DNA of 64,000 bases from Puniceicoccales bacterium (GCA_031257405.1 JAIROS010000002.1:10512-74511); one strand, 5' to 3'; numbered from the stretch's first letter, positions 3,094 through 45,102 are shown. Translations and numbers: made by a program. The notes: generated by a model from the sequence alone, not told the origin.

Positions 3094-3939
3094 CTATTTT
3101 TTTACCTTTCTGCCATTTCTTCTCACTAAAATCATGCGATTCGACTGCTGCGAACGCTTGCGCGTCGGGTAACCCTTCGCCAACTGCCCCCACGGAGAAA
3201 CCGGATGGCCACCGCCCGAAGTCCGCCCCTCGCCGCCCCCCATGGGGTGATCAACCGGATTCATAACCACACCGCGTACGCGCGGCCGCCGCCCTAACCA
3301 ACGATTCCGACCCGCCTTCCCAAGGGATTGCTTGCCATGATCGCCATTGCCCACCTGGCCAATCGTCGCCCGACACCTCGCATTAAATAAACGGACCTCC
3401 CCACTCGGCATCTTCAGCGTCGCATAACCGTTGCCAAAAGCTACAATCTGCGCGCCAATCCCCGCACCACGAGCAATCGCCGCACCCTTGCCCGGCTCCA
3501 CCTCAATGCAATGCACAAAAACACCAGCAGGAATGAGCGCTAACGGTAAAGACATGCCCACGGAAAAATCCCGCGGAACAGTATCCAAACTCACTACGCG
3601 ATCGCCAATATTCAAATTGCGCGGCGCTAAAATGTAACGCTTTTCCCCGTCCGCATAATTGAGTAAAGCAATGTCCGCCGAACGATTCGGGTCATACTCG
3701 ATGCGCGCCACAGTAGCCGGAATATCCAATTTATCGCGGAAAAAATCAATCACGCGAATCAGCCGCCGATGCCCGCCGCCCCGCCGACGAGAAGTAATGC
3801 GCCCATAACAATTGCGCCCCTTGCAGCGGTGCTTGCTCACCACCAAAGAATATTCCGGTCCGCCCCGCCACAATTCCCTTTTGTTGAGCGCTAAAAACCG
3901 TTGCGTCGAAGTTTTTGGTCTGCGTTGAATAATCGTCAT
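3094..3939 (-). CDS. rplB: 50S ribosomal protein L2
   Basis: 281-aa ORF with L2 hallmarks (GRNCYGRITSRRRGGGHRRLIRVIDF; MNPVDHPMGGGEGRTSGG). Confidence 0.97.
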   Translation of the reverse strand: MTIIQRRPKTSTQRFLALNKRELWRGGPEYSLVVSKHRCKGRNCYGRITSRRRGGGHRRLIRVIDFFRDKLDIPATVARIEYDPNRSADIALLNYADGEKRYILAPRNLNIGDRVVSLDTVPRDFSVGMSLPLALIPAGVFVHCIEVEPGKGAAIARGAGIGAQIVAFGNGYATLKMPSGEVRLFNARCRATIGQVGNGDHGKQSLGKAGRNRWLGRRPRVRGVVMNPVDHPMGGGEGRTSGGGHPVSPWGQLAKGYPTRKRSQQSNRMILVRRNGRKVKK

Positions 3940-5936: not shown

Positions 5937-8093
5937 CTACGAACGCGCCGCCGCACGACTCGACGTCTCCACAATTTTCTGTAACAAATTCGCCGGGACC
6001 TGCTCAAAATGCGAGGGTTCCATCGAGTAACTCGCCCGCCCCTTCGTCAAAGAACGTACGTCCGTCGCGTAACCAAACATCATTTCCAACGGAACAAATG
6101 CCGTAATATTCGCCAACGTACCCTTCGTTTCCATGTTCTGAATCTGCCCCCGCCGCCGATTTAAATCGCCCACAACATCACCCTGATACTCCTCCGGCGT
6201 CGCAACCTCTACCTTCATAATCGGCTCCAGTAAAATAGGTGCCGCCTTCCTCATCGCATCCTTAAACGCAAATATACCCGCCATTTTAAACGCCATCTCC
6301 GAAGAATCTACCTCGTGAAAACTGCCATCCACAATGCGCGCACAAAAATCGACCACCGGATACCCAGCCACAACACCATTCGACGCCCCCTCCAATATGC
6401 CATCCTGCGTCGGCTTAATGTACTCCTTCGGAATCACCCCGCCCACTATCTCATTCAAAACCGATACTCCCTCGCCGCGCTGCACCGGCTCTAACTTGAT
6501 TACCGCATGACCATATTGGCCGCGCCCCCCCGATTGGCGTATGAATTTTCCTTCTCCGGTCGCTGATCCCGTAACCGTCTCCCGATAGGCTATCTGCGGC
6601 CGCCCAGATGTCGCATCAACGCTGAATTCCCGAAATAAACGATCGCAAATAATCTCCAAATGTAACTCGCCCATCCCCGCGATCAACGTCTGCCCCGTCT
6701 CCGGATTCGTTACCACCTTAAACGTCGGATCCTCCTCCGCTAAACTTTGTAAACCAAATGCTAATTTTTCCTGATCCGCCTTCGATTTCGGCTCAATGGA
6801 CATACTAATGACCGGCTCCGGGAAAGTCGGCGGCTCCAAAATCCCATCAAACGAACGGTCACAGAGCGTATCGCCCGTCGCTATGCCCCTCACGCCAATA
6901 ATCGCACAAATATCCCCCGAATAGGCAATGTCAATGTCCTCGCGATCATTCGCCTTCATAATCATCAGACGACTCACCCGCTCCGTCTTGCGCGTGCGCG
7001 GATTATAAACCGTGTCGCCTTTCCGCAATTGCCCACTGTATACGCGGCAAAATACCAATTTCCCTACGTAGGGATCGCTCATCAACTTGAATCCCAACGC
7101 CGTCATCTTACCCAAATCATCGGGCCGAATGCCTATTTCACTTCCATCATCCAAAAATGCCCTCGTCGGCGGTAAATCGATCGGCGACGGTAAAAAATCG
7201 ACCACCGCATCCAATAACATCTGTACACCGCGCTTCTTAAACGCACTCCCCGGTATCACACCCACAAAATCCAATGACAATGTCGCTTTTCGCACCGCTA
7301 AACGAATCATGTCCTGCGAAATGGCTTCGCCCCCCAAATACGCCTCCGCTAACCCATCGTCGTAGTCCGCTAGCGCCTCAATCAAAGATTCGCGGTACTC
7401 CTCCGCCTGCTTCCGATAATCCCCGGGAATCTCCACCTCGTCGAACCTCTCTCCCAACGGATCCTTCGCATCATATAAATAGGCCCTCATGGCAATTAAA
7501 TCAATCAGGCCCTCAAATTTGTCTTCCGCACCAATGTTGAGATATAAAGGGTGTGCATTTTTTCCCAGTTTCGTGCGAATATCCTCGACGGCACCCAGAA
7601 AATTCGCCCCCGTGCGGTCCATTTTGTTAATAAACGCAATGCGCGGCACGCCATATTTGTCCATCTGCCGCCAAACGGTCTCCGACTGCGGCTGTACCCC
7701 GGCTACCGCACAAAATACCCCAATCGCACCATCTAAAACCCGCAGCGAACGCTCCACTTCCGCCGTAAAATCGACGTGCCCTGGTGTGTCAATGAGATTA
7801 ATTTGGTGGTTGATCCCAGCAAATAAACCTACCTTCGTCCGCCAACCACAACTAATCGCCGCCGAAGTAATCGTTATGCCGCGCTCCCGCTCCTGCGCCA
7901 TCCAATCCGTTACCGCCGTCCCGTCGTGCACCTCCCCCATCTTGTGCACAACCCCAGCGTAGTACAAAATGCGCTCCGTCGTCGTCGTCTTCCCCGCATC
8001 AATGTGCGCCGCAATCCCTATGTTGCGCGTGTATTCCAACGCCGTCCTGCGATTGGGGGCATTCGCCACCGAAATTTTCCTGTCGACCACCAT
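5937..8093 (-). CDS. fusA: Elongation factor G
   Basis: The ORF track gives 5937..8117 with a TTG start. The ATG at 8093 (MVVDRK...) avoids overlap with rpsG. G-domain motifs: NIGIAAHIDAGKTTTTERILYY and DTPGHVDF. Confidence 0.95.
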   Translation of the reverse strand: MVVDRKISVANAPNRRTALEYTRNIGIAAHIDAGKTTTTERILYYAGVVHKMGEVHDGTAVTDWMAQERERGITITSAAISCGWRTKVGLFAGINHQINLIDTPGHVDFTAEVERSLRVLDGAIGVFCAVAGVQPQSETVWRQMDKYGVPRIAFINKMDRTGANFLGAVEDIRTKLGKNAHPLYLNIGAEDKFEGLIDLIAMRAYLYDAKDPLGERFDEVEIPGDYRKQAEEYRESLIEALADYDDGLAEAYLGGEAISQDMIRLAVRKATLSLDFVGVIPGSAFKKRGVQMLLDAVVDFLPSPIDLPPTRAFLDDGSEIGIRPDDLGKMTALGFKLMSDPYVGKLVFCRVYSGQLRKGDTVYNPRTRKTERVSRLMIMKANDREDIDIAYSGDICAIIGVRGIATGDTLCDRSFDGILEPPTFPEPVISMSIEPKSKADQEKLAFGLQSLAEEDPTFKVVTNPETGQTLIAGMGELHLEIICDRLFREFSVDATSGRPQIAYRETVTGSATGEGKFIRQSGGRGQYGHAVIKLEPVQRGEGVSVLNEIVGGVIPKEYIKPTQDGILEGASNGVVAGYPVVDFCARIVDGSFHEVDSSEMAFKMAGIFAFKDAMRKAAPILLEPIMKVEVATPEEYQGDVVGDLNRRRGQIQNMETKGTLANITAFVPLEMMFGYATDVRSLTKGRASYSMEPSHFEQVPANLLQKIVETSSRAAARS

Positions 8094-8110
8094 CGTCCTT
8101 ACCCCACTCC

Positions 8111-8584
8111 TCACCAAACAAAATGCGCAAATGCCCGATTCGCCTGCGCCATCCGATACATCTCCGCCTTCTTCTTTACCACATTCCCCGTGTTGTTGTA
8201 AGCGTCAATAATCTCCTGCCCTAACGCCTCACGCATCGCCTTCCCCTTGCGCGACTTCGATGCCTCAACTAACCAACGAAAAACTAAGCTCTGCTGCCGA
8301 ATGTACGGCACTTCCACCGGCACCTGGTAAGTCGCTCCACCAACACGCCGACTCTTTACTTCCACCTTCGGCCGAGCATTCTCCAAAACAATCAGTAAAA
8401 GTTCAACGGGATCCCCCTTCGTCAACTCCTCACAAGCCTTCTCCAACGCCCCGTAAACAATCGAACACGCCAAAGAACGCTTCCCGCGCTCCATCACTAT
8501 ACTAATCAACTGCCCAATGAGGGTGCTGTTAAACCGCGGATCCTTTGCAAATTCACGTTTTTCGGCTCTTCTACGACGCGACAT
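8111..8584 (-). CDS. rpsG: 30S ribosomal protein S7
   Basis: 157-aa ORF (MSRRRRAEKRE...DPRFNS.L...GGATYQVPVEV...RAFAHF.W). Confidence 0.96.
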   Translation of the reverse strand: MSRRRRAEKREFAKDPRFNSTLIGQLISIVMERGKRSLACSIVYGALEKACEELTKGDPVELLLIVLENARPKVEVKSRRVGGATYQVPVEVPYIRQQSLVFRWLVEASKSRKGKAMREALGQEIIDAYNNTGNVVKKKAEMYRMAQANRAFAHFVW

Positions 8585-19271: not shown

Positions 19272-19844
19272 TTACCCTCTCATTAACTCCGCTTGCCAAA
19301 ATTCTAACTCAACGGGCACGTCCCGCCCAAATAAAGATACCGAAATTTGCATCTTCCCATTCTCCAAATCAATCGCCATTACCTCGCCTATCGACTCCAC
19401 AAACGGCCCATCCGTCACCTTTACCCGGGCGCCAACCCCAAATTCTACCCGCTGCACCGGCGCCGCTCCAATGCTGGCCTTCGCCTGATCCAAAATCCGT
19501 ACCACCTCCTCCTCCCGCAGCGGAACCGGCCGCTCGCCACCTACAAAATTCAATACCCCCTGGGCATTGCGCACGAAATACCACGGCGATTGGAGTAACT
19601 TTTCCTCCTCATCGTACAACTTCATCCGCACAAATACGTACCCCGGATAAAATTTTTTTACACGATTGTAACGTTTGCCATTCTTGATCTCCACTACCCG
19701 CTCCGACGGCACCAAAACTTCGTCGATCGCAACGCCTTCGTGGACCGCAAATTTGTCGAGATACGCCTTTACTTTGGCCTCCTGATTGGAAAAAACCTGC
19801 AGAGCGTACCAACGCGAATCCTGTACCGAAAGCACCATAACCAT
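19272..19844 (-). CDS. nusG: Transcription termination/antitermination factor NusG
   Basis: 190-aa ORF with an NGN domain ([15 protein letters not shown]) and a C-terminal KOW (G..V.V.DGPF....G.V). It sits in the slot between secE and rplK. Confidence 0.94.
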
Positions 19845-19847
19845 AAA

Positions 19848-20066
19848 CTAATCCCCTAGCCGGCCCCGTACCCAACCACTGAAAAGATCAAAAACGTGGA
19901 GCAATGAAAAATCCACAATGGAAACGTAAATGCCCAAAAGCGCCATCCCAACCAAAACAACGGCCACATAGTGGCGCATTTCCTTCTGGTTCGGCCAAGA
20001 CGCCTTCTTCAGCTCGCCAACCATCTCGCCCCAAAATATACCTAACTTTCTTAATGGATTTTTCAT
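19848..20066 (-). CDS. secE: Preprotein translocase subunit SecE
   Basis: 72-aa ORF with one C-terminal transmembrane helix (HYVAVVLVGMALLGIYVSIVDF) and ELKK..WP motif, immediately upstream of nusG. Confidence 0.88.
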   Translation of the reverse strand: MKNPLRKLGIFWGEMVGELKKASWPNQKEMRHYVAVVLVGMALLGIYVSIVDFSLLHVFDLFSGWVRGRLGD

Positions 20067-20092
20067 TACTTTCCCTCTTTTTTACATTTTAT

Positions 20093-20168
20093 TGGCAGGA
20101 GAAGAGGGTCTCGAACCCCCAACCTACGGTTTTGGAGACCGTTGCTCTGCCAATTGAGCTATTCTCCT
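20093..20168 (-). tRNA. trnW: tRNA-Trp (anticodon CCA)
   Basis: Hand-folded cloverleaf from the reverse complement: AGGAGAA-TA-GCTC-AATTGGCA-GAGC-A-ACGGT-CTCCAAA-ACCGT-AGGTT-GGGGG-TTCGAGA-CCCTC-TTCTCCT-G-CCA. The tuf / tRNA-Trp / secE arrangement is the classical one. Confidence 0.93.
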
Positions 20169-20226
20169 CCGATCACTAATAAAAAAATATTTCTCGCCCC
20201 CTTCGTCAATCATTTTTTTACCAATT

Positions 20227-21417
20227 TTATTCCAAAATTTCCGTAATCCGACCCGCACCAATCGTCCGGCCGCCCTCGCGAATCGCAAAACGCTGCCCCC
20301 TCTCCATGGCGATTTTCTTTTGCAACTCAAGCGTCACATTCAAATTGTCCCCAGGCATCACCATCTCCGCATTCTCCGATAACGACACAATCCCCGTCAC
20401 ATCCGCCGTCCCAAAGAAAAATTGCGGCCGATAACCATTGAAAAATGGCGTGTGACGCCCCCCCTCATCCTTCGTCAAAACATAAATTTCCGCCTTCGCT
20501 TTGAAATGCGGCGTAATACTCTTGGGCTTCGCAATCACCTGCCCCCGCTCCACCTCCTTCTTCTCCAAACCGCGCAACAATAAACCGACATTGTCCCCCG
20601 CGCGCCCCTCATCCAGTAGCTTGCGGAACATCTCAACGCCCGTGCATGTCGTCTTCTTCGTATCGCCTAAACCTACAATTTCAACCTCTTCGCCAACTTT
20701 TACAATGCCCCGCTCAATGCGCCCCGTCGCAACCGTACCGCGCCCCGTAATCGAAAATACATCCTCAACGGCCATTAGAAAAGGCTTATCGATGTCGCGC
20801 TGCGGCTCGGGAATATCCCTGTCGAGTGCCTCCAAAAGCTTTCCGATCGCCTCCACGCCCTCCGATTTCCCCTCCAACGCCGCTAAAGCCGAACCGCGTA
20901 CCACCGTAATGTGATCGCCGTCAAACTCATACTTCGTCAATAAATCCCGCACCTCCATCTCAACCAAATCCAATAGTTCCGGATCGTCAAGAAGATCAAT
21001 TTTATTGAGAAAAACTACGATTTTTGGTACGCCGACCTGGCGCGCCAGCAGTATGTGCTCGCGGGTCTGAGGCATCGGCCCGTCCGCCGCACTCACAACC
21101 AAAATCGCTCCATCCATCTGCGCCGCCCCCGTAATCATATTCTTGACAAAATCCGCGTGCCCCGGACAGTCAACGTGCGCATAATGCCGCCTATCGCTCT
21201 GGTACTCGACGTGGGAAACGGCGATCGTCACCGTCTTCGTCGCGTCCCGAACAGTCCCACCCTTCGTGATATCGGCGTAGGACTTGAATTGCGCTAAGCC
21301 CTTGTCCGATTGCACTTTGACGAGCGCGGTAGTTAGAGTAGATTTACCGTGGTCGACGTGACCTATGGTACCCACATTGACGTGGGGTTTTGTCCTCTCA
21401 AAAGTTTCTTTTGCCAT
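20227..21417 (-). CDS. tuf: Elongation factor Tu
   Basis: 396-aa ORF ([26 protein letters not shown]...[26 protein letters not shown]...NK.D). A Shine-Dalgarno-like AAGGAAGAG lies upstream. Confidence 0.98.
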
Positions 21418-21457
21418 TAACTCTTCCTTTTCCTAAAATAATACAAAAAATTTACAA

Positions 21458-21533
<76 letters not shown>

Positions 21534-21639
21534 CCGACAGAGTCGAAATCCGCCGCGGGAGACATCACTTGACGACTCTCGGTTAGGAATTTGCGAATCG
21601 CAGGGCACTTGGTCAATCTTTATTTTGTATATTTGGTCT

Positions 21640-21884
21640 ATTTTTTTAATTGTCGAGTTTTCTCCGCCCCATTGGGCGATTTACGGCATAAAAAATCAAA
21701 AAAAGCAGATAAAGCATTTAAAAATAGAATAAAAAAATATCTCCAATCCAAAACAGTGGAGACTTCAAATCCGGAGCAGAAAATTTTTATCCGCCCCGGA
21801 TGAATTTTATTTAAATAAGTTTTACTTAATATTTAGATTTAGATGCCAGAAGCCCCCCTTCTGAAAGCCCCAATTCCGACCTAT
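21640..21884 (-). repeat. Ankyrin-cassette copy 0 (3'-flank of ank1; degenerate promoter half)
   Basis: Aligns by eye with the four other cassettes. It carries the hairpin ccggagcag...ccgccccgg (21771..21799), a CCATTGG box (21669..21675), and ttgtcgag in place of ctgtcaag. Confidence 0.8.
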
Positions 21885-22712
21885 CTAACGCCAAAAAAAT
21901 CCACCAGGAAAGAAATCACGTAGCCTCTCAAAATATGAAGCAGTATCTTCTTTATTACGCTCTTCGTTTGTTTTCCCTCCGTTCGCACGCAATAGAGCCA
22001 CTAAATCTTTCACTACTTCGTCCTTCAATCCCTTTTTATTCTGAAAAACCAAATCTATCGGGGTCTGGCCAGTATAAATGGGAGCCATTGAGGCTAAAAC
22101 TAGACCGGGAATATTATTAGTCCTAGTATTTACATCTGCGCCATTGTCCAGCAAAAATCGAACAACATTTTTGTGGCCATTCTCCGCGGCATAATGCAGA
22201 GGCGTTCGCCCTTGATTGTCCCTAGCATTCACTGGAATGTTGTTTCTAAGGACAAGGAATGTAACAATATCAAACTGGCCTCCCTCCGCGGCATAATGCA
22301 GCGCGGTCTTGCCCTGACCATCCTTAATTTTCTCATCTGCGCCATTGTCCAGCAAAAATCGAACAACCTTTTTGTGGCCATTCTCCGCGGCATAATGCAG
22401 CGCGGTCCTGCCCTCATTAAGACCACCTTTCGCCCCAGCATTCACATCTGCGCCATTGTCCAGCAAAAATTGAACAACATTTTTGTGGCCATTCTTCGCG
22501 GCATAATGCAGCGCAGTCTTGCCGTTGTTATCCCAATTTTTCACATTTTTGTCAGACATATTTCTCACGACACATTCGCAGTCGCCTTTTTTTGCGGCTT
22601 GAAAGAACCAGTCATCTCGAAACTCTTCACTCCCCAGAAGATAATTTGCACCTAAGAAGTAACTGCCCACTACCATATATTTAATCATACTTTTTTTATC
22701 TAACTTATTCAT
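21885..22712 (-). CDS. Ankyrin-repeat protein, paralogue 1 (leader type A: MNKLDKK...)
   Basis: 275-aa ORF with repeated 33-aa units (GKTALHYAAKNGHKNVVQFLLDNGADVNA...). It has an N-terminal Ser/Gly-rich hydrophobic leader and an AAAGGAAAA Shine-Dalgarno sequence upstream. Confidence 0.92.
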   Translation of the reverse strand: MNKLDKKSMIKYMVVGSYFLGANYLLGSEEFRDDWFFQAAKKGDCECVVRNMSDKNVKNWDNNGKTALHYAAKNGHKNVVQFLLDNGADVNAGAKGGLNEGRTALHYAAENGHKKVVRFLLDNGADEKIKDGQGKTALHYAAEGGQFDIVTFLVLRNNIPVNARDNQGRTPLHYAAENGHKNVVRFLLDNGADVNTRTNNIPGLVLASMAPIYTGQTPIDLVFQNKKGLKDEVVKDLVALLRANGGKTNEERNKEDTASYFERLRDFFPGGFFWR

Positions 22713-23036
22713 AATATTTTCCTTTCGGTAACCGAACTACCAAGCACATTAATTTCAATCTGTCAAGAACTTTTTTTTTATTTTTTTTGAAAAATTTAGC
22801 ACAGCCCGAAAATTCCCCGCTCCATTGGGCGAGTTGCGGTACAAAAATCAGAAAAATATTAAAAAACAAAATAAAAAACATCCCCAATCCAAAACGGCGG
22901 AGACTTCAAAACCGGAGCAGAGAATCTCTCCCCGCCCCGGATAAATTTTATTTAAATAAGTTTTATCTAATATTTAAATATATAAGTTTTACCTAATATT
23001 TAGGCGTTAATAAGCTCCGGCAGTACGTCTCTGTGC
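22713..23036 (-). repeat. Ankyrin-cassette copy 1 (between ank2 stop and ank1 start)
   Basis: Contains the hairpin (22912..22940), a CCATTGG box (22822..22828), a T-rich tract, and TTGACA (22761..22766) with TTGGTA (22738..22743). Confidence 0.85.
22738..22766 (-). promoter_or_regulatory. Putative promoter of ank1 (TTGACA-N17-TTGGTA)
   Basis: A perfect -35 hexamer preceded by an A-tract. The block TTGACAGATTGAAATTAATGTGCTTGGTA is identical upstream of ank4, and similarity stops right after TTGGTA. Confidence 0.5.
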
Positions 23037-23819
23037 CTAGGATTTAAAACCAGGCAGTTTCCGAAACCAGCTCCGCCAGCTCCTTTCTTGCAAGACTTCA
23101 GCGCCTGTTTTCGCTCCGCGTGCCAGCAATAGAGCCTTTATTTGTTCACGCCGGGCCCGATCCCGATTCTCACACTCCTCGACCAAATCTAGCGCGGTCT
23201 TGCCCTTATCCCGGCCACCAATCACCGTAACATTCACATTAATTCCAGGTGCAGTTAGCAACATTTCAACGATCTCTGTTTTGCCCCATCTTACGACATC
23301 ATGGAGCACGGTATAGCCATAGATATCCGCAGCATTCACATTAATGCCTCGTCTGCCTAGCAACAATCTAACGGTCTCTTTGTTCCTCTTGCGGAACTCT
23401 GTTACGGCCAAAGAAAGCGCGGTATAGCCACTATTGTCCTTAGCATTCACATCGGCGCCTGCGCCTAGCAATAAGTTAGCGTTATCTACGCGGCCATACA
23501 TTGCGGCCCAATGGAGCGGGGTCCTGTTCCATCTATCAGCCCTATCCCTAGCATTCACATCGGCGCCTGCGCCTAGCAACAATTTAACAACTTCTATATT
23601 ATCCCACTGTACGGCACAATGAAGCGCGGTCTCGCCGCCAATTTCACTCCTAGCATTCACATCAATGCCTCCGATTAACGCCGCCCGAACACCTGCTACA
23701 TCGCCCTTTGCTGCGGCTTGATGGAGCGGTGTCCATAGCCCCAGAAGACAATTTGTACTTAATAGGCAACTACTCGTTGCCACACATTGAACTATATTTT
23801 TTATATCTGCGTTTCGCAT
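23037..23819 (-). CDS. Ankyrin-repeat protein, paralogue 2 (leader type B: MRNADIKNIVQCVATS...)
   Basis: 260-aa ORF with ankyrin units (TPLHWAAMYGRVDNANLLLGAGADVNAKD...). Confidence 0.92.
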   Translation of the reverse strand: MRNADIKNIVQCVATSSCLLSTNCLLGLWTPLHQAAAKGDVAGVRAALIGGIDVNARSEIGGETALHCAVQWDNIEVVKLLLGAGADVNARDRADRWNRTPLHWAAMYGRVDNANLLLGAGADVNAKDNSGYTALSLAVTEFRKRNKETVRLLLGRRGINVNAADIYGYTVLHDVVRWGKTEIVEMLLTAPGINVNVTVIGGRDKGKTALDLVEECENRDRARREQIKALLLARGAKTGAEVLQERSWRSWFRKLPGFKS

Positions 23820-24134
23820 AACATATTGTACAATAATACATTTTTAACACTTGGCAAGAATTTTTTTATTTTTTTTTGAAAAATTTTAGCGTAACCTGAA
23901 AAATTTCCCCGTTCCATTGGGCGAGTTGCGGTACAAAAATCAGAAAAATATTAAAAAACAAAATAAAAAAAATATCCCCCATCCAAAACGGCGGAAACTT
24001 TAAAGCCGGAGCAGAAAAATTTTCCCACCCCGGACGAATTGTATCTAAATAAGTTTTACTTAATATTTAAACATATAAGTTTTACCTAAACTCAGGCATC
24101 AATCAACTCCTTTAATGAGCCTTCGCCGCCTCTA
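23820..24134 (-). repeat. Ankyrin-cassette copy 2 (between ank3 stop and ank2 start)
   Basis: Near-identical to copy 3 over about 250 bp. It carries the hairpin (24006..24033) and a CCATTGG box (23914..23920). Confidence 0.85.
23825..23857 (-). promoter_or_regulatory. Putative promoter of ank2 (TTGCCA ... TGTACAAT extended -10)
   Basis: The minus strand reads aaaaaaattcTTGCCAagtgttaaaaatgtattatTGTACAATatgttATG. The -10 lies only 5 nt from the ATG and no Shine-Dalgarno sequence is present. Confidence 0.4.
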
Positions 24135-24989
24135 TTATTCTTCTGAATCTAAATATGCTGCTGCTGCTTCTTCTGCTTCTTTTCGCTGCAGCCGCTTCTG
24201 CCTCCGCAAGCTCAGTATCCGTTTTTGCTCCGCGTGTCTATGCAATAGACCCACTACTTGGGTATGATCTCTCTCATAAGCCAAATCTAGCGCAGTTTTG
24301 CCTCTGTCATCCTTAGCATTCACATCGGCATCTTTCTTTAGCAACAATTCAACAACATCTACGTGACCCTTCGCCGCGGCCAAATGGAGCGCAGTCTCGC
24401 CTTTCTCGCCTTTAGCATTTACATTTGCGCCTGCGTTTATCAATAATTTGACGGGGACTTCGAGGCCCACTACTGCGGCGTTATGAAGCGCCGTCCAGCC
24501 CTTTTCCTCGCCATTACTCACCGTAGCATTCACATTAATGCCAGGTGCAGCTAGCAACAGTTTAACAGCCTTTTTTTGGCCCCAGTCTGCGGCAGTATGG
24601 AGAGGAGTGTAGCCATTTTCGTTCGTAACATTCACGTCCGCTCCTGCGTCTATTAACATTCCAACGACCCTTCCGTAGCTGTCAAATGCTGCGGCCAAAT
24701 TGAGCGCGGTATCGCCACCATCAGTCTTAGCATTCACATCAATGTCGGGCATATCTAGTAATATTTTAACGATCTTTGGGGATCTCGGTGTGACCAAATG
24801 GAGCGCTGTCCAGCCCTCTTCATTCTTAGCATTCACATCAATGCCTCCGATTAACGCCGCCCGAACACCTGCTAAATCGCCATTCGCTGCGGCTTTATGG
24901 AGCGCGGTAGTCCCCAGACAACTTACACTTAAGAAGCAACCACTCGTTGCCACACATTGAACTATATTTTTTATATCTGCGTTTCGCAT
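24135..24989 (-). CDS. Ankyrin-repeat protein, paralogue 3 (leader type B)
   Basis: 284-aa ORF. The first 16 residues are identical to ank2, followed by ankyrin units (GWTALHLV..., GETALHLAAAKGHVDVVELLLKKDADVNAKD). Confidence 0.92.
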   Translation of the reverse strand: MRNADIKNIVQCVATSGCFLSVSCLGTTALHKAAANGDLAGVRAALIGGIDVNAKNEEGWTALHLVTPRSPKIVKILLDMPDIDVNAKTDGGDTALNLAAAFDSYGRVVGMLIDAGADVNVTNENGYTPLHTAADWGQKKAVKLLLAAPGINVNATVSNGEEKGWTALHNAAVVGLEVPVKLLINAGANVNAKGEKGETALHLAAAKGHVDVVELLLKKDADVNAKDDRGKTALDLAYERDHTQVVGLLHRHAEQKRILSLRRQKRLQRKEAEEAAAAYLDSEE

Positions 24990-25338
24990 AACATATTGTA
25001 CAATAATACATTTTTAACACTTGGCAAGAATTTTTTTATTTTTTTTGAAAAATTTTAGCGTAACCTGAAAAATTTCCCCGTTCCATTGGATGAGTTGCGG
25101 TACAAAAAACAGAAAAAAACCTAAAAACAAAATAAAAAAAATATCCCCCATCCAAAACGGCGGAAACTTTAAAGCCGGAGCAGAAAAATTTTCCCACCCC
25201 GGACGAATTGTATCTAAATAAGCTTTACTTAATATTTAAACATATAAGTTTTACCTAAACTCAGGCATCAATCCGCTCCTTCAAGACGTCGCGCCTCTGC
25301 TTCAAGTTCTTCAGCTCTCGCCTGAAGCCCTTGTGCCT
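24990..25338 (-). repeat. Ankyrin-cassette copy 3 (between ank4 stop and ank3 start)
   Basis: Same module as copy 2, with the hairpin (25175..25202) and a CCATTGG box (25092..25098). Confidence 0.85.
24995..25027 (-). promoter_or_regulatory. Putative promoter of ank3 (same TTGCCA / TGTACAAT block as ank2)
   Basis: Sequence identical to the ank2 upstream block. Confidence 0.4.
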
Positions 25339-26736
25339 CTATTCTTCTTCTTCTTCAAGTTCAGCGCCTCTTTTCGCTCCACGTGCCAGCAATAGATCCC
25401 TTATTTGGGTATAATTTCCACGATTAGCAAAATCTAACGCAGTCTCGCCATATTCAACCTTAGCATTCACATCGGCATCTTTCTCTAGCAACAATTTAAC
25501 AACATCTACGTGGCCCTTCGTCGCGGCCACATGGAGCGGCGTATAGCCATTTTTATTCTTAGCATTCACATCTAGGCCGTCCGCAGCTAGCAACGCTTCT
25601 ACGGCCTTTACGTAGCCCTTCTGTAGGGCTAAATCTAACGCTGTCTTGCCATCTTCAGCCGTAGCATTCACATCGGCATCTTTCTCTAGCAACAATTGAA
25701 CAACATCTACGTAGCCCTTCTGTAGAGCTAAATCTAACGCAGTCTCGCCATATTTATTCTCAGCATCCACATCAATGCCGGGTGCAGTTAGCAACAATTT
25801 AACGAAATTCAAATTGTCATTCATTGCGGCATAATGGAGCGCCGTATAGCTTGTGTTATCCTTAGCATTCACATCTGCATTTTTTTTTAGTAACAATTGA
25901 ACAACCTCTACGTAGCCATTCAGTGCGGCCTTAATGAACGCTGTCTCGCCATATTTATCTTTAGCATTCACATCTGCATTTTTTTCTAGCAACGCTTTAA
26001 CAACATCTACGTGGCCCTTCGTCGCGGCCACATGGAGCGCCGTCTTGCCTAATTTATCCTTAGCATTCACCACAATGTTGGATACAGCTAGCAACGATTT
26101 AACAACATCTACGTGGCCATTCTCTGCGGCCAAATGGAGCGCGGTCTGGTCCAAGAAATTCACAACATTCACATTTGCGCCGAAATACATAAGAGATTTA
26201 GCAACAGCTACGTGGCCATTCTCTGCGGCATAATGGAGCGGCGTATAGCGGTAGCTATCCTTAATATCCACTGCTGCGCCTCTAATGGGGATAAAGTATC
26301 TAACAATATCCAAGTGGCCCATCTTTGCGGCCAAATGGAGCGCCGTTTTGCCTCCGTTATCCCTAGCATCCATATTTGCCTCTAATTTTAGCAACTTTTT
26401 TACGATATCGCAGTGACCATTTTCTGCGGCATAATGGAGTGCCGTCTTACTCTTACCCTTACCATCAGTCACCTTAGCATTCACATCTATGCCGTAATTC
26501 ATAAGAAATTCAACGACATTCAAACGGTTATTCGCTGCAGCCTCAATGAACGCGTTCTGGATTTTTTCGTTCTTACCATTTATCTCAATGAGGGATATTG
26601 CATTTTCAACGCCTTCTAAATCGCCATCTCTTGCGGCCTCAATGAGCGCGGTAGCCCCCTGAAGATAACTTGCACCTAAGAGGTAACTACTCACTACCAA
26701 ACCTTTAATTATATTTTTTTTATCTAACTTATTCAT
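25339..26736 (-). CDS. Ankyrin-repeat protein, paralogue 4 (leader type A)
   Basis: The ORF track gives 25339..26781. The ATG at 26736 (MNKLDKKNIIKGLVVSSYLLGASYLQG) matches the ank1 start and has the same Shine-Dalgarno sequence. It contains about 12 ankyrin units. Confidence 0.92.
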   Translation of the reverse strand: MNKLDKKNIIKGLVVSSYLLGASYLQGATALIEAARDGDLEGVENAISLIEINGKNEKIQNAFIEAAANNRLNVVEFLMNYGIDVNAKVTDGKGKSKTALHYAAENGHCDIVKKLLKLEANMDARDNGGKTALHLAAKMGHLDIVRYFIPIRGAAVDIKDSYRYTPLHYAAENGHVAVAKSLMYFGANVNVVNFLDQTALHLAAENGHVDVVKSLLAVSNIVVNAKDKLGKTALHVAATKGHVDVVKALLEKNADVNAKDKYGETAFIKAALNGYVEVVQLLLKKNADVNAKDNTSYTALHYAAMNDNLNFVKLLLTAPGIDVDAENKYGETALDLALQKGYVDVVQLLLEKDADVNATAEDGKTALDLALQKGYVKAVEALLAADGLDVNAKNKNGYTPLHVAATKGHVDVVKLLLEKDADVNAKVEYGETALDFANRGNYTQIRDLLLARGAKRGAELEEEEE

Positions 26737-27010
26737 AATATTTTCCTTTCGACGACGACATACCAAGCACATTAATTTCAATCTGTCAAGAACTTTTTTT
26801 TATTTTTTTGAAAAAAATTTAGCACAGCCTGAAAATTCCCCGCTCCATTGGGCGAGTTATAATACATAAAATCAGAAAAAATATTTAAAAATAGAATAAA
26901 AATATCACTCATTACATTAATTTCAATCTGTCAAGCTTTTTTTATATTTTTTTGAAGAAATTTTCCCGCTCCATTGGGTAAGTTGCGGTACAAAAAACAG
27001 AAAAAAACCT
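26737..27010 (-). repeat. Ankyrin-cassette copy 4, with two promoter modules in tandem
   Basis: TTGACA at 26784..26789 is the functional ank4 copy, and a second one lies at 26929..26934 with no ORF behind it. There are two CCATTGG boxes (26845..26851 and 26971..26977). Confidence 0.8.
26761..26789 (-). promoter_or_regulatory. Putative promoter of ank4 (TTGACA-N17-TTGGTA)
   Basis: Identical 29-nt block to the ank1 promoter. Confidence 0.5.
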
Positions 27011-27205
27011 AAAAACGAAATGAAAGATGGCTTTTCGGCCTTTTAATCGAAGAATTTTCGGTAAAAATATCCATTAAATTTTATCAATAAAACACATCTC
27101 TCGAGTGTGCTTTTTGTCGGCGACTTCAGCCGCAACCCATCGCTTTTCGGCCCCTTAGTCGAAGAATTTTCTTGCCGCCACCAATTATTTTATATTTTTT
27201 TGACC

Positions 27206-28153
27206 GTGAATATTCTAATGACAGGCGCCGGCGGGTACATCGGTAACCACTGCACGCTGAAACTCCTCCCCTCAGGACACTCCCTCTTCGGCCTCGACGC
27301 CGTAAAACCTAAATATACATCCCTTTTCCGAAATTTTTACACCGGTGACCACGGCAATACCGCTCTGGTACAACGCATTCTAAAGGAGGAGCGCATCGAG
27401 TGTATCATCCACGCTTCCGGCTCGTCAAACGTCATGGATACGGTCCAAAACCCAATAAAATATTACTGCAACGACCTCATGGGAACTATATTCCTCCTCC
27501 AAACGGCCCTTGAAAATAATGTGAAAAAATTAGTTTTTCTCTCTTCGGCGCAGGTCTACGGCAACAGCTCGCCACTGTCGGCCACGGAAAATACGTCGCC
27601 CAATCCTATTAATCCAATGGGGAAAATAAAGCTCGCCATCGAACAATTAATCGAGTCGCTGTCAATTTCTCACGACCTGCACTACGCCATTTTACGGATT
27701 TCAAACGCCATTGGTATGGATCATCAGGCGGAAAATTTCCCGTCCAATGGCGACCTGCTCTCCCAAATATTACTCAATGAGTCGCTCGACCTGTTCGGCA
27801 CCGATTTTAATACGGCGGATCATCGGGCGGAACGCGATTTTATCCATGTCAATGATGTGGCGCAGGCCGTTTTACAGGTACTGCCAAAACTCGGCGGCTT
27901 CCAAAAGAATTTTTGCTACAACATTGCTTCTGGCAAGAGTTATTCGGTGGCGGATTTCGTCAAATTTGTTGAAAAAGCGGCGCATTTGACCGTCACCATT
28001 GATCCTCGGGAGCGGCGGAGCGGCGAAATCGAACGCCTCGCCATCGACCCGTACTCTGCCCAACGGGAACTCGGCTGGCGCCCGCAATATTCGTTGGAAT
28101 ACATGATCGAATCAAGCGTCAATTGGCTCAAAACTCACGAAATCTGCATCTAA
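27206..28153 (+). CDS. NAD-dependent epimerase/dehydratase, GalE-like, catalytic Tyr replaced
   Basis: The ORF track gives 27107..28153. The likely start is GTG 27206 or ATG 27218, before the Rossmann motif MTGAGGYIGNH. FLSSAQVYG is conserved, but the YxxxK motif reads MGKIK. Confidence 0.8.
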   Translation: MNILMTGAGGYIGNHCTLKLLPSGHSLFGLDAVKPKYTSLFRNFYTGDHGNTALVQRILKEERIECIIHASGSSNVMDTVQNPIKYYCNDLMGTIFLLQTALENNVKKLVFLSSAQVYGNSSPLSATENTSPNPINPMGKIKLAIEQLIESLSISHDLHYAILRISNAIGMDHQAENFPSNGDLLSQILLNESLDLFGTDFNTADHRAERDFIHVNDVAQAVLQVLPKLGGFQKNFCYNIASGKSYSVADFVKFVEKAAHLTVTIDPRERRSGEIERLAIDPYSAQRELGWRPQYSLEYMIESSVNWLKTHEICI

Positions 28154-28159
28154 CTTGAA

Positions 28160-28545
28160 CTAAAAATCCCCCATTGTCAAGACGTTTTTCGGAAATGTTT
28201 TGAAAACTAAATATCTCGGCCTGGAAAAATAAAAAATAACACCAGCGAAAATTAGAATTCCAAACGCGGCATTCTCCCCACCCTCTGCACCTAGCCAATC
28301 AGAAAAATTTCCAATTGTCAAGGCGTTTTTTGGAAATATTTTAAAAATTAAATATTTCGATTCGGGAAAGTGAAAAATAACACCAGCGGAAATTAGAATT
28401 CCAAACGCGGCATTCTCCCCGCCCCATGTACATAGCCAATCAGAAAAATTTCCAATTGTCAAGGCGTTTTTTGGAAATATTTCAAAAATTAAATATCTCG
28501 ATTCGGAAAAGTGAAAAATCAAACAATCGCACAATACTTACCCAA
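28160..28545. repeat. Tandem repeat, 141-bp period, about 2.7 copies
   Basis: The anchor ttgtcaa recurs at 28174, 28315 and 28456. Each unit carries a minus-strand TTGACA-N17-TTGGCT plus GGGGCGGGGAGAATGCCGCGTTTGGAATTC. Confidence 0.9.
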
Positions 28546-28632
28546 TCCGCTAAACTTTTTCACCTTATCCCAAAATTTCATACTTTACTATTGCCAAAAT
28601 ATATAAAATTCTTCCCATCTCCCATAACCCCG

Positions 28633-28709
28633 CGGGGCGTAGCTCAGCTTGGTAGAGCGCATGTTTTGGGTACATGAAGTCATCGGTTCGAGTCCGGTCG
28701 CCCCGACCA
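28633..28709 (+). tRNA. trnP: tRNA-Pro (anticodon TGG)
   Basis: Hand-folded: CGGGGCG-TA-GCTC-AGCTTGGTA-GAGC-G-CATGT-TTTGGGT-ACATG-AAGTC-ATCGG-TTCGAGT-CCGGT-CGCCCCG-A-CCA. Confidence 0.92.
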
Positions 28710-30761
28710 CCAGCCAATACCAGAAAATATCGCCCCACCCCTCTCCTCAAAATTAATCGCCTCAAAAAAATCCCGGCCAACCTCCCGAATAAATCGACTG
28801 CGCTGCAAAGGTGCCGGAAAATAATTCTTCTTACCATCCACAACCGCCTGGCTCGGCACACATAAATATAATTCCCGCCGCGCCCGCGTCACCGCTACAT
28901 AAAATAACCGCCGCTCTTCGCGAATTTCCTCCTCCGCTACCGCCCGCTTCAAAGGAAAACTGTTTTCGTTGAGCCCAATGATGAATACCGCCGCAAATTC
29001 TAGCCCCTTCGCCTGATGCACCGTACTTAAACGCAAACTCTCCGCCATATTCGCATCCTCCCCATTCGACTCCGATTGCAATAGCGCCACCTGCTGGATC
29101 AACTCCGATAAATCCCGAAATTTACCGCAAAAATTCGCAAACCCCTCAACGTCATCCCAACGCGCCTGCCAATTCGTATAATTCCGTTTCAAATACTCGC
29201 CATATTCGCCGTCGAGGATGAAAAAAATCATTTCGCCGATGCCCTCAAAAGATATCGATTTTTCCGCCGTTTGCTGCGCGCATTCGAAGAGATCCGCCGG
29301 GGGACGCGGAGGCTGATCCCCGCAAAAATCTGACGCACCGGAGTACAACCCCCGTAAAACACGCGTAAAAGGCCACCAATATTCCAACGCCGCCGCCGGA
29401 ATTTTCTTGACAATTTCCTCCTCCTCAAATAACGAAAAAAGATCCCGCCGCGCCATCTCGGCCGACTGCTGCAAATACAGTAAAATGCGCTCCGCCGTCT
29501 TCTCACCGACCTTCGGAAAACGACACAATAGCCGCACAAATGCCCGCGAATCCCGCGGATTGATAATAAAACGTAAAAATGATAAAATATCTTTGATATG
29601 CGCCTGCTCGAAAAATCGCACGCCACTCGTGATCGCGTAAGGAATATTGTGGCGCGTCAGCTCCATTTGCAGCTCCATCGACTGGTAATGCGCCCGGTAC
29701 AAAACGGCGATCTCCGATAGCGGGTAGCCCTCGCCGAGTAAGCCGGTCAGCCGCTTAATGATGAAATTTGCCTGTTGGCGCGCGTCGAGTACGGAGACGA
29801 CGAGGGGTTTGCGGAAGGCATTTTTCGTCGACCTCAAAATCTTCGCGTACTCAAACTTCTCCGCTACGGGAATCTCGTTCGCAAAATCCAGGATCTCCGG
29901 CGTACTGCGATAATTCACCTGCACCTTCGTCACCCTCGTCTGCGGGTACCGCTGCGGGAATTCGATAATGCTCCTAATATCCGCGCCGCGCCAGGTGTAA
30001 ATGCATTGCGCATCGTCGCCCACCGCAAAAATTTGTCCATTTTGCGCCATTAGGTCGATCATTTTCAGCTGAATCGGGTTGGTATCCTGATATTCGTCGA
30101 CTAAAATGTGGCGAAATTGCTGGTTATAGTGCGCTGCGACGTCCGGTTTTTCCTCCAATAACCGCACAAAATGGCACAGCAAATCGTCGTAATCCATAGC
30201 ATTTTGCTCGGATTTGATCGATTGGTAGCGGTCGATAAAGCGCTTCAGCATTCCCCCGTGATCCGCCAGATAGGGGTATTTTTCCTCGATCACGCGCGCC
30301 ACCGTCCGCATCGCATTGCGCGAAAAACTCACCACCTCAAACAGTACGCGTGCCGTCGGATTACTCTTATTCTTCGGGAAATCGGGCGCAATCGACCGCA
30401 TGGCGCCGTCAAATAACGCCAGCGAATCGTCCTCATCGAGAATAACAAAATTAGGATTTTCCATGTGGCGCCGCAGTAAACGCTGGCAGATGTGGTGGAA
30501 AGTGCCCCCATAAAATAAATTATTTGTAAATCCCGTCAACGCCTCCACGCGCTGGAGCATTTCTCGCGCGGCCTTATTGGTAAAAGTGAGGAGGAGAATA
30601 TTTTCCGGCGACGCGCCTTTTTCGAGTAACCAAGCCACGCGGTAGGTCAACGTCCGTGTTTTTCCGGTCCCCGCACCCGCTAAAATGAGGTTTGTCGGGC
30701 TTTGGGAAATAACGGCCGCGTACTGTTCTTCATTGAGTTCTGTTTCGAAATCGATCGCCAT
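28680..30761 (-). CDS. UvrD/PcrA/Rep-family ATP-dependent DNA helicase
   Basis: 693-aa ORF with Walker A (AGAGTGKTRT), motif II (VDEYQDTN), and LTFTNKAAREM. The last 30 nt of the ORF overlap tRNA-Pro. Confidence 0.9.
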   Translation of the reverse strand: MAIDFETELNEEQYAAVISQSPTNLILAGAGTGKTRTLTYRVAWLLEKGASPENILLLTFTNKAAREMLQRVEALTGFTNNLFYGGTFHHICQRLLRRHMENPNFVILDEDDSLALFDGAMRSIAPDFPKNKSNPTARVLFEVVSFSRNAMRTVARVIEEKYPYLADHGGMLKRFIDRYQSIKSEQNAMDYDDLLCHFVRLLEEKPDVAAHYNQQFRHILVDEYQDTNPIQLKMIDLMAQNGQIFAVGDDAQCIYTWRGADIRSIIEFPQRYPQTRVTKVQVNYRSTPEILDFANEIPVAEKFEYAKILRSTKNAFRKPLVVSVLDARQQANFIIKRLTGLLGEGYPLSEIAVLYRAHYQSMELQMELTRHNIPYAITSGVRFFEQAHIKDILSFLRFIINPRDSRAFVRLLCRFPKVGEKTAERILLYLQQSAEMARRDLFSLFEEEEIVKKIPAAALEYWWPFTRVLRGLYSGASDFCGDQPPRPPADLFECAQQTAEKSISFEGIGEMIFFILDGEYGEYLKRNYTNWQARWDDVEGFANFCGKFRDLSELIQQVALLQSESNGEDANMAESLRLSTVHQAKGLEFAAVFIIGLNENSFPLKRAVAEEEIREERRLFYVAVTRARRELYLCVPSQAVVDGKKNYFPAPLQRSRFIREVGRDFFEAINFEERGGAIFSGIGWWSGRPDSNR

Positions 30762-43484: not shown

Positions 43485-45062
43485 CTAAAAACCAAACCAT
43501 CGCCGAAATCGTTCCATAAATCTTCCCTCAATTCTTGGCTGCTCATAGTTTTCATGTTGATATTGCCCCGCTTTTTTTATGAAATCTATTATGTTAGGAG
43601 TAATCCATGGGCCGCTGTATATAGCCAAAGCATCATAACCTTCATTGCCGTTTTTCCTAAAAATAAGACTTCCACTAAACCCAGACCCACAGAGAGGTGA
43701 GGAATAAGAAGACTTCTTGTTCTTAAATTCTTCTAAACATTTTTTACATTCGCTGCTTAATTTTTTTATTTTATCTATACACTCTTTTGCGGTTTTTAAC
43801 GACCATTTTGCTCCATCTGCACATATTTTTGCTTGTTCTTTGTCTCCCCTATCCAAGGCGTCTTTCATTCTTTGATTCCAAACATTCGCAAAACCCATCT
43901 GCTTATCATACCATTGTTCTCCAAGCGAAATCTGCAACAATAAACATTCTAGAAAACGACACAAATGCAAGCCTCCCACACAACCACATCCTCCCACATT
44001 TTGACTAGTACCTTCTCCCATTAAATCTAATCCTCTCAAAGTGATTGCTTTTTTCACGCCACTTCCAAAAAAATTTCTTTTTTCCTCTCCGGAAAAGAAC
44101 GAACCCTGATCTGGACATAATCCTGTCCATCCATAGCCAATAACCACGGGACATTCATCCTCAGGAATTGCTTCTCCCGGAGATTTTTCCAAATTGACAT
44201 GGTAAGGTGGAGTGCCTCCTGCCCTATAATCGACTAAAGAAAATTGATCAAAGGGGAATCCAAAAACGGTTTCCTCTTCGCATTTTATCGGTTTATACAA
44301 TATGAGTAGAACTAAATCGTAACAAACGATTCTCCCCTCATCGCCGGTTTCCTCCTTTTTACCAGGCAAAAAATACATATGGGTAACGGGGATTCTCTCT
44401 GAAATTTTTCCCCATTCTAGTCTAACATTAATTTCGGTGATTGTCAAGTTACCGTTTTCTTTGCCGAACAAAAAACTCCCGTTTTTGGAAAGTCCCTCAT
44501 TTTGTTTAAAATGTCTCATTTCCTGCCCACCGAACGATATGACTTCATCGCCTCCATTTTCAGGCAAAACTAGCTCCTTAATATCATTATTCTCAAATTC
44601 TGGCAATACGGCGTGCGCACAGGTTATAACGCACCTTCCCTCTAATCCCCGAATATTCAGATTGACTATATTACCTGTAGCGCCACGTGCAGAGAATGAT
44701 CCTGGTTTGACTTGGCCAGTAATTGGATTATATTCCATACTTTCGTTTTCAACGTGAACAATACTCATCGCCTCCCGCCTCAGATCTCCATTCCGAACGC
44801 GCTCAACGTCTTCTAGTTTGAAACAAGCCTCAGGAAAAATATCTTCATCGTGTAAAAATTTCCTAGCTTCCCGCTTTTCTTCTTCGGAAACTGCTCCGGA
44901 AGTATCTTTCAATTTTCTGAAGGCTTCGGCGATTTGTTTCGCTTCCAATTGTGGATCAACGGCTTCCGGCGAAGAATCAGTGGCTACTGCCTTACCGTAA
45001 CCCATACTCAGCAATAAACCTATGCTGTATATCCTTAATTTTATTGTTTTGTTTCTTACCAT
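43485..45062 (-). CDS. Secreted protein with a divergent trypsin-like (S1/PA-clan) His-Asp-Ser arrangement
   Basis: The ORF track gives 43485..45092. The ATG at 45062 gives a signal peptide MVRNKTIKLRIYSIGLLLSMGYGKAVA. Candidate triad contexts are VITCAHAV, CYDLVLLIL and CGSGFSGSLIF. Confidence 0.55.
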   Translation of the reverse strand: MVRNKTIKLRIYSIGLLLSMGYGKAVATDSSPEAVDPQLEAKQIAEAFRKLKDTSGAVSEEEKREARKFLHDEDIFPEACFKLEDVERVRNGDLRREAMSIVHVENESMEYNPITGQVKPGSFSARGATGNIVNLNIRGLEGRCVITCAHAVLPEFENNDIKELVLPENGGDEVISFGGQEMRHFKQNEGLSKNGSFLFGKENGNLTITEINVRLEWGKISERIPVTHMYFLPGKKEETGDEGRIVCYDLVLLILYKPIKCEEETVFGFPFDQFSLVDYRAGGTPPYHVNLEKSPGEAIPEDECPVVIGYGWTGLCPDQGSFFSGEEKRNFFGSGVKKAITLRGLDLMGEGTSQNVGGCGCVGGLHLCRFLECLLLQISLGEQWYDKQMGFANVWNQRMKDALDRGDKEQAKICADGAKWSLKTAKECIDKIKKLSSECKKCLEEFKNKKSSYSSPLCGSGFSGSLIFRKNGNEGYDALAIYSGPWITPNIIDFIKKAGQYQHENYEQPRIEGRFMERFRRWFGF

Positions 45063-45072
45063 AGTTATATTG

Positions 45073-45102
45073 GATATATCAGTCCCATTCAATCAATGTC
45101 AA
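45073..45102 (-). promoter_or_regulatory. Putative promoter of the peptidase-like gene
   Basis: The minus strand reads aaaaaaagcTTGACAttgattgaatgggacTGaTATATCcaatataactATG. It has a perfect -35 and an extended -10. The ATG is about 11 nt after the -10 with no Shine-Dalgarno sequence. Confidence 0.45.

Follow-up and report, generated by a model that had tools for sequence, protein, structure and literature searches.

A tandem array of ankyrin-repeat genes with putative Sec-type leaders at a conserved locus of variable content in a termite-gut Puniceicoccales bacterium

Relation of the ankyrin array to described systems

Ankyrin-repeat proteins with Sec signals have been reported in Dependentiae and in sponge Ankyphages, and ANKp lowers phagocytosis. 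Ankyrin genes have also expanded in other host-associated bacteria, including Legionella and Coxiella (Ank), Anaplasma (AnkA), Wolbachia and Rickettsia, in which they evolve fast and vary in copy number. As a rule, the type IV effectors among these have no Sec leader, and their delivery depends on a type IV secretion system and on C-terminal signals. In this study, a tandem array of four ankyrin genes, g1 to g4, was analyzed in a stretch of 64,000 nucleotides from a Puniceicoccales bacterium (GCA_031257405.1 JAIROS010000002.1:10512-74511), referred to below as the window. Our preferred reading, of moderate confidence, is that the locus encodes a lineage-specific family of exported, host-directed ankyrin proteins in a termite-gut bacterium of the Puniceicoccales/Opitutales.

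The closest analogues appear to be the signal-peptide ankyrins of sponge symbionts, of their phages and of Dependentiae. Like the ankyrin-repeat proteins of sponge symbionts, ANKp and the proteins of Chromulinavorax/Dependentiae (98 ankyrin genes), the products of g1 to g4 consist of a signal-peptide-like leader and little besides ankyrin repeats. Those proteins, as do the products of g1 to g4, form multi-copy families; their producers live with phagocytic eukaryotes, a setting that is plausible here too, and binding of host proteins has been proposed for them, as it is proposed here. Unlike them, the genes studied here form one tandem array at a fixed locus, share promoter-leader cassettes and have a leader and tail specific to the family; they belong to a member of the Verrucomicrobiota from the termite gut.

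Other described systems match less well. An earlier note on this DNA had pointed to Wolbachia, Legionella and Coxiella as models, but these involve type IV substrates without Sec signals; because all four proteins carry Sec-type leaders, this analogy appears to be the wrong one, and the type IV effectors are probably a poorer match than the signal-peptide ankyrins. In the Vlp, Vsp and Vsa families of Mycoplasma, tandem paralogues share a 5' non-coding region and a signal peptide that are both highly conserved; their repeats diverge, and homopolymers lie near the promoter. The array resembles them in its tandem paralogues, of which g2 and g3 combine a conserved 5' region and leader with a divergent repetitive body; it differs in that its repeats have the ankyrin fold, only two of the four leaders have a lipobox cysteine, and its homopolymeric tracts lie upstream of the -35 site. 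Pseudomonas aeruginosa AnkB and Bdellovibrio Bd3460 are small ankyrin proteins too, and an export or anchor sequence is likewise present at their N-termini, but each is encoded by a single, conserved gene that is linked with the gene of a partner enzyme, whereas the array is variable and multi-copy and has no partner genes.

Repeat proteins and their predicted export

The four minus-strand open reading frames (ORFs) of 275, 260, 284 and 465 amino acids described in the earlier note were recovered exactly as stated there (Table 1); an extension of g4 to 26781 from a TTG start codon is unlikely. In Pfam profile searches for Ank (PF00023) and Ank_2 (PF12796), the four products scored 143-489 bits, compared with gathering cut-offs of 21-27, with E-values of 8.6e-46 (g1), 3.8e-43 (g2), 9.4e-53 (g3) and 4.9e-150 (g4). 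All ORFs of the window were scanned, and g1 to g4 were the only ones with matches to an ankyrin profile. The consensus G.TALH.AA..GH..VV..LL..GADVNA.D, which had been read from the sequence earlier, is directly visible in the repeats. A hidden Markov model of the repeat, derived from g4, counted 6, 6, 7 and 13 units in g1, g2, g3 and g4, respectively, N- and C-caps included. The variation in repeat number noticed earlier was therefore real, although the range then given, about 5 to about 12, was slightly low. An AlphaFold model, made for g3 alone among the four proteins, had a predicted local distance difference test score of 86.9 and seven helix pairs, with residues 1-25 below 50 and the leader unstructured. 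In a Foldseek search with this model, the best matches in the PDB were DARPins (TM score 0.93-0.94, root-mean-square deviation 1.2-1.4 Å, approximately 224 residues). The products of g1 to g4 are true ankyrin-repeat proteins.

The public record already carries this annotation. The g1 product is identical to NCBI MDR0590302.1, 'MAG: ankyrin repeat domain-containing protein [Puniceicoccales bacterium]' (MAG, metagenome-assembled genome), encoded on a contig of 80.8 kb. On the same contig, the JGI call for g2 (P0152) comprises only the C-terminal 154 amino acids, from Met107, which may reflect a miscalled start site or a sequence difference in that copy.

The family has a conserved C-cap (LL..GAKTG.E, in the context ..LL.A.GAKTG.E..), followed by one of two types of tail, aromatic and basic in g1 and g2 or helical and acidic in g3 and g4, and both types recur in members from other genomes. 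By entropy calculated for each position of the repeat, variable sites lie within the canonical binding face as well as outside it, a pattern that is not diagnostic. The repeats of g1 and g4 show periodicities of 99-300 nt (99, 201 and 300 nt within g4), which are a sign of internal repeat expansion.

The leaders comprise 26-27 residues, in which a basic n-region (MNKLDKK.. or MRNADIK..) is followed by 17-30 uncharged residues and the end reads ..L(L/Q)G, with glycine at position -1 in each protein. They are of two types in the order A-B-B-A, as reported earlier: g1 and g4 (A type) begin with MNKLDKK..., and g2 and g3 (B type) begin with MRNADIKNIVQCVATS... The first ankyrin repeat directly follows the leader in g2, g3 and g4, while a short linker and the N-cap lie between them in g1. 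The same leader was found at the start of every complete family member from other genomes.

A crude rule for signal peptides was applied, under which the n-region had to carry a net positive charge, an uncharged run of 13 or more residues had to start by position 16, and mean hydropathy had to exceed 0.8. It flagged all four ankyrin proteins, a Sec-dependent autotransporter encoded in the window and two unknown proteins. Among 33 housekeeping ORFs it flagged one, for a transaldolase that is probably extended too far at its start. The PROSITE lipobox pattern PS00013, with its position rules, fits g2 and g3 at Cys18, while g1 and g4 have Tyr18; the autotransporter also fits, so the pattern is unspecific. 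From these leader features, Sec export of the products of g1 to g4 is likely, and the first export step is probably taken through Sec. The earlier note had called the export route unknown; the Sec-type leaders on all four proteins now suggest the inner-membrane step.

Alternatively, the proteins might be classical effectors, delivered by a type III or type IV system whose genes lie elsewhere; the signal for translocation would then be the leader or the C-terminal tail, and the leader would not be a Sec signal. Type IV ankyrin effectors are well documented, the conservation of the leader sequence exceeds what a generic Sec signal needs, and the Glu-rich tails of g3 and g4 are loosely, and only loosely, like the E-block of Dot/Icm substrates. 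However, all four proteins have a charged n-region and a long uncharged stretch, as Sec signals typically do and type IV substrates do not, the Sec-dependent autotransporter has a similar leader, and leader substitutions have accumulated at nonsynonymous rates (dN) close to synonymous rates (dS). The lack of a Sec leader together with a C-terminal signal, by which type IV effectors are recognized, was not found in g1 to g4, and no type III or IV secretion genes are present in the 64-kb window. Such a route is improbable.

The autotransporter gene (50869-54861; 1330 amino acids; PF03797 beta-domain, E-value 5.6e-16; leader MKEKNRKMGPLANRYGLLTVLGLGCSFLVGAAHG) is the sole secretion-related gene in the window and lies 24 kb from the array. 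No Pfam or NCBIfam match was obtained for two ORFs at 43485-45092 (approximately 525 amino acids) and 57798-59312 (approximately 504 amino acids), which have GC contents at third codon positions (GC3) of 0.34 and 0.39 and N-termini like the ankyrin leaders (MVRNKTIKLRIYSIGLLLSMGYG... and MNNILKSQMACLCIIGSSSVLLG...); they may be further lineage-specific exported proteins.

Mosaic genes at a conserved locus

The paralogues have not diverged uniformly. A 5' module of g2 and g3, consisting of approximately 290 nt of upstream DNA, the leader and the first repeat, is 93-100% identical between the two genes, after which identity falls to a background of approximately 55%. Over the upstream 300 nt, the two genes agree at 285 of the 299 positions that align (2 gaps; 95%). 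A gene-conversion test among the paralogues, suggested earlier, placed a clear break near 24817 (maximum chi-square 178, permutation p ≤ 0.001), with a divergence of 6.8% in the module versus 43.6% beyond it. The dS between g2 and g3 is 0.13 in the module and approximately 1 in the body, and in the leader dN is close to dS; dN/dS on the repeat bodies was uninformative, as dS is approximately 0.8-1.0 there and alignment of non-orthologous repeats is arbitrary. The module common to g1 and g4 is shorter, with 77-90% identity. The abrupt drop in identity and the contrast in dS indicate recent conversion or replacement of the g2/g3 5' module, as judged from the sequences, and not uniform divergence. 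Ongoing birth-and-death evolution, as proposed earlier, agrees with the turnover observed (the arrays of relatives differ, and a ghost cassette and fused genes occur), but with the homogenization of the g2/g3 5' module it is not the sole mode.

The array is flanked on one side by tRNA-Thr-tuf-tRNA-Trp-secE-nusG-rplKAJL-rpoBC and on the other by a galE-like gene, tRNA-Pro, pcrA, ribF and truB. All neighbors are housekeeping genes, in agreement with the earlier statement that no secretion machinery is encoded beside the array. Two contigs from relatives carry ankyrin genes at the same address. In L003 (Nc350_bin186), ankyrin genes adjoin the same tRNA-Thr promoter and the contig ends within the array; in L117, from the same organism as L003 or a close relative, truB-ribF-pcrA-tRNA-Pro, two extra genes and galE are followed by four ankyrin genes up to the contig end. 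Compared with the window, protein identity is 95% for tuf, 89% for rplK, 81% for nusG, 77% for pcrA, 74% for ribF and 63% for galE, versus 31-42% for the ankyrin genes, and the paralogues of a genome resemble one another more than any of them resembles a gene of the other genome. With one flank conserved in L003 and the other in L117, the locus is shared with relatives, but its content, which differs in gene number, length and sequence, is not orthologous.

Short contigs (L082 and L114-L116) contain two to five tandem members with the leader, tail and cassette layout of the window, and the A-type promoter module of L114 matches that of the window at the DNA level. The single ORFs at L082 432-2357 and L003 1164-2258 continue in frame from a tail (..GGKTGDEIKAS) into the remnant of the next leader or N-cap, and these fusions apparently arose through deletion between cassettes. 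Ankyrin genes were found near one of 80 nusG loci from diverse bacteria, that of L003. With g2 itself set aside, its best match in a collection of 5.8 billion proteins has approximately 38-48% identity, in line with the earlier view of the array as lineage-specific, and by these comparisons it appears to be a quickly turning-over family. Family size is a lower bound, with 7 of the 150 matches listed by the profile search aligning from residue 1 and long generic ankyrin proteins crowding the list. Word-index searches with a leader profile gave 2 matches at first, and a 12-leader profile gave none at E ≤ 10 despite known members, which is a limit of the method and not an absence. Exact matching of g4, g1 and the JGI fragment of g2 against the contig index gave no match, and EF-Tu matched only a 1.4-kb Logan contig. 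Thirty-one metagenome matches to a degenerate leader DNA pattern were discarded as chance occurrences in AT-rich DNA, as none of the 31 had ankyrin repeats; the collection evidently lacks these termite samples.

It is also conceivable that the array is a recent foreign island, from a eukaryote, a phage or another bacterium, inserted beside a tRNA gene and without adapted function. The array does sit between tRNA-Thr and tRNA-Pro, its GC3 is 0.43-0.48 compared with approximately 0.60 in the housekeeping neighbors, and its third-position GC skew is weaker than theirs. However, other exported or unknown genes of the window have a similarly low GC3, the leaders match the organism's own signal-peptide style, and no integrase, phage, transposon, invertase or recombinase genes were found near the array. 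Since the array occurs at the same locus in a relative with flanking proteins 63-95% identical, it predates their split. An origin as a phage or island was rejected as contradicted by this shared locus, and we regard a recent foreign insertion as extremely improbable.

The nearest NusG loci belong to the Puniceicoccales MAGs Gsp477_bin70 (83%) and Nc350_bin186 (80%). According to the supplement of Mies et al. (2024), the code Gsp477 stands for the hindgut of Glyptotermes sp. and Nc350 for that of Neotermes castaneus; both hosts are lower termites, which bear flagellates. In that study, a large clade of Opitutales MAGs with small genomes, found in lower termites only, is considered putatively endosymbiotic in gut protists and akin to the intranuclear Ca. 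Nucleococcus. The producer lineage is thus plausibly host-associated, as had been supposed earlier.

If the proteins are exported, they may nevertheless serve the bacterium's own physiology, being kept in the periplasm or membrane, where bacterial enzymes would have them as scaffolds, chaperones or immunity proteins. A periplasmic location is what a Sec-type leader by itself predicts, and the AnkB protein of Pseudomonas and the self-protection ankyrin of Bdellovibrio are precedents. Scaffolds should, however, have one-to-one orthologues, whereas copy number, length and sequence of the array genes change wholly between close relatives. Moreover, there are no partner enzyme or toxin genes in or adjoining the array, the neighbors being housekeeping genes, and the family is confined to a termite-gut clade. 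We therefore consider retention in the envelope for such a role rather unlikely.

In the preferred reading of a host-directed family, each gene is assembled from reusable modules, namely a terminator-like hairpin, a 23-nt box, an A-tract, a promoter-like site, a leader, a variable solenoid, a C-cap and a tail. The leader would direct the protein to the Sec translocon and be removed by signal peptidase I or, for g2 and g3, by signal peptidase II with lipidation, so that a nearly pure ankyrin binding module would be placed in the envelope. Surface display, vesicles or a later secretion step could then bring it to a eukaryotic partner, which is presumably a gut flagellate and whose proteins it would bind; such a host-interaction role is what we infer for the family. 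The interval from galE/tRNA-Pro to tRNA-Thr-tuf would be a hot spot of fast turnover by repeat expansion, duplication, deletion, fusion and conversion of the 5' promoter-leader part.

Several observations weigh against this reading. The h-regions of the leaders are only moderately hydrophobic (best 10-residue Kyte-Doolittle mean 1.6-1.8), the A-type leaders have no cysteine, and the leaders of relatives fail the lipobox pattern through K11. Sec export alone leaves a protein in the periplasm, and no outer-membrane route is encoded in the 64-kb window, which equally favors retention in the envelope. The MAG is placed in the putatively endosymbiotic clade by its naming and by the similarity of its NusG and EF-Tu, not by a phylogeny, and its GC content of approximately 50% is atypical for a strongly reduced endosymbiont. 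Finally, the promoter assignments described below are consensus matches only, and the A-type -10 element is not clear.

Almost nothing has been learned of the dealings that verrucomicrobial symbionts in termite-gut flagellates (the Nucleococcus/Opitutales clade) have with their hosts. The locus provides concrete candidates, namely small proteins that carry export signals and consist otherwise of binding modules alone; between close symbionts these proteins are wholly different, yet the chromosomal address stays the same. The fixed address makes the genes easy to find, compare and express, and the common promoter-leader cassette is a handle on the whole family and its regulator. To a specialist, the cassettes, the conversion of the 5' module and the hot spot would be useful but unsurprising details, the theme being a familiar one in symbiont genomics.

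Intergenic cassettes, promoter-like elements and neighboring features

The coordinates of the array and its elements are listed in Table 1. After the stop codons, the order of elements is AT-rich 26-nt direct repeats, a 12-bp GC-rich hairpin located 3' of each gene, a U-rich stretch, a T-rich tract and a 23-nt box. The box, AACTCGCCCAATGGAGCGGGGAA, occurs in six copies in the 64 kb, all of them within the array, compared with none expected by chance. Downstream of it are an A7-9/T/A7-9 tract and then a -35-like TTGACA (A type) or TTGCCA (B type). The A-type genes have a Shine-Dalgarno site; the B-type ATG lies approximately 11 nt past a -10-like hexamer, and the mRNAs of g2 and g3 may be nearly leaderless. 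A promoter scan backed the B-type sites only (9 of 12 matches), and the hairpins escaped a terminator scan on account of breaks in their T-runs. An Rfam search of 19800-29000 returned tRNAs only. From this arrangement, we infer that each gene probably forms its own transcription unit, and the box, A-tract and TTGACA at 26914-27060 are read as a promoter-only ghost cassette.

Table 1. Positions of the ankyrin genes, their cassettes and the array boundaries in the window
Feature	Position	Strand	Remarks
g1	21885-22712	minus	275 aa; A-type leader (residues 1-27), N-cap, 4 canonical repeats, C-cap, aromatic/basic tail (...FFPGGFFWR)
g2	23037-23819	minus	260 aa; B-type leader with lipobox-pattern Cys18, 6 repeats, aromatic/basic tail (...SWRSWFRKLPGFKS)
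g3	24135-24989	minus	284 aa; B-type leader with lipobox-pattern Cys18, 7 repeats, long C-terminal helix (basic cluster, acidic end)
g4	25339-26736	minus	465 aa counted from ATG; A-type leader, 13 repeats, acidic tail (...ELEEEEE)
g3 5' module (upstream DNA, leader, first repeat)	24817-25284	minus	approximately 93-95% identical to g2 module at approximately 23646-24115
Intergenic cassette between g2 and g1	22713-23036	minus	AT-rich 26-nt direct repeats, hairpin, T-rich tract, box, A-tract, TTGACA, Shine-Dalgarno
Terminator-like hairpin, g2/g1 cassette	22912-22940	minus	
23-nt box, g2/g1 cassette	22813-22835	minus	followed by A8-T-A9 tract
TTGACA, g2/g1 cassette	22761-22766	minus	
Equivalent cassettes	23820-24134, 24990-25338, 26737-26913	minus	
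Cassette distal half, recurring copy	21600-21884	minus	
Ghost cassette	26914-27060	minus	box 26962-26984, A-tract, TTGACA 26929-26934; no gene behind; continues directly into next cassette
tRNA-Thr(GGU), then tuf	21458-21533	minus	downstream array boundary; conserved in relative L003
galE-like epimerase gene	27209-28153	plus	with tRNA-Pro (28633-28709) and pcrA, upstream array boundary; conserved in L117

The cassettes bear on the possibility that the array works in the manner of Mycoplasma Vlp/Vsp proteins, as a variable, surface-lipoprotein-like system of displayed ankyrins that are varied by cassette recombination and by slippage in promoter A-tracts, altering what the host or predators see. 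The tandem paralogues do combine a conserved 5' non-coding region and leader with a divergent repetitive body, [IVM][SG][SG]C is present at position 18 in g2, g3 and several relatives, the A7-A9 tracts just 5' of the -35 site differ by one base between copies, and the contigs of relatives break within the arrays. However, g1 and g4 have tyrosine in place of Cys18, and neither a homopolymer in the promoter spacer nor switching by site-specific inversion was indicated: the tracts lie upstream of the -35 site and not between -35 and -10, and no invertase or other recombinase gene is near the array. Such a system is doubtful.

A bolder version of the host-directed reading is about as speculative. 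It supposes that conversion keeps the promoter-leader modules uniform while they are shuffled onto changing ankyrin bodies, and that slippage-prone A-tracts beside the 23-nt box, acting as an operator, set expression. A protist endosymbiont would thereby have a changeable repertoire of host-binding proteins, displayed or secreted, and certain of them, among these g3, which has a basic KRILSLRRQKRLQRK helix, might be aimed at the host nucleus.

Some further features of the window and of related contigs were observed. In L117, two extra, highly divergent ankyrin genes (6522-8373) lie beside galE, on the strand opposite to the other array genes; they encode classical signal peptides (MNGKRLLRGVLFGSFFSASIACATS...) and have no counterpart in the window. 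The interval from the 3' end of galE to tRNA-Pro (28162-28584) contains approximately 2.5-3 copies (88% match) of a 141-nt unit, each with TTGACA-N17-TTGG on the minus strand, similar to the A-type ankyrin promoter; a 124-amino-acid ORF across these repeats is probably spurious, and two unrelated genes take the place of this interval in L117. The GC skew of the plus strand is -0.3 to -0.4 over 1-20 kb of the window (third-position skew up to +0.73 on the coding strand) and fades to approximately 0 past 46 kb, where gene orientation turns mixed. The rpoN (sigma-54) gene is split over three frames (47880-48107, 48188-48790 and 48845-49225), representing either a pseudogene or assembly errors in the MAG. 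The last ten or so codons of pcrA (..GRPDSNR) are antisense to tRNA-Pro (28680-30761 versus 28633-28709), and the same overlap and peptide end are found in L117 (1343-3427 versus 3398-3474).

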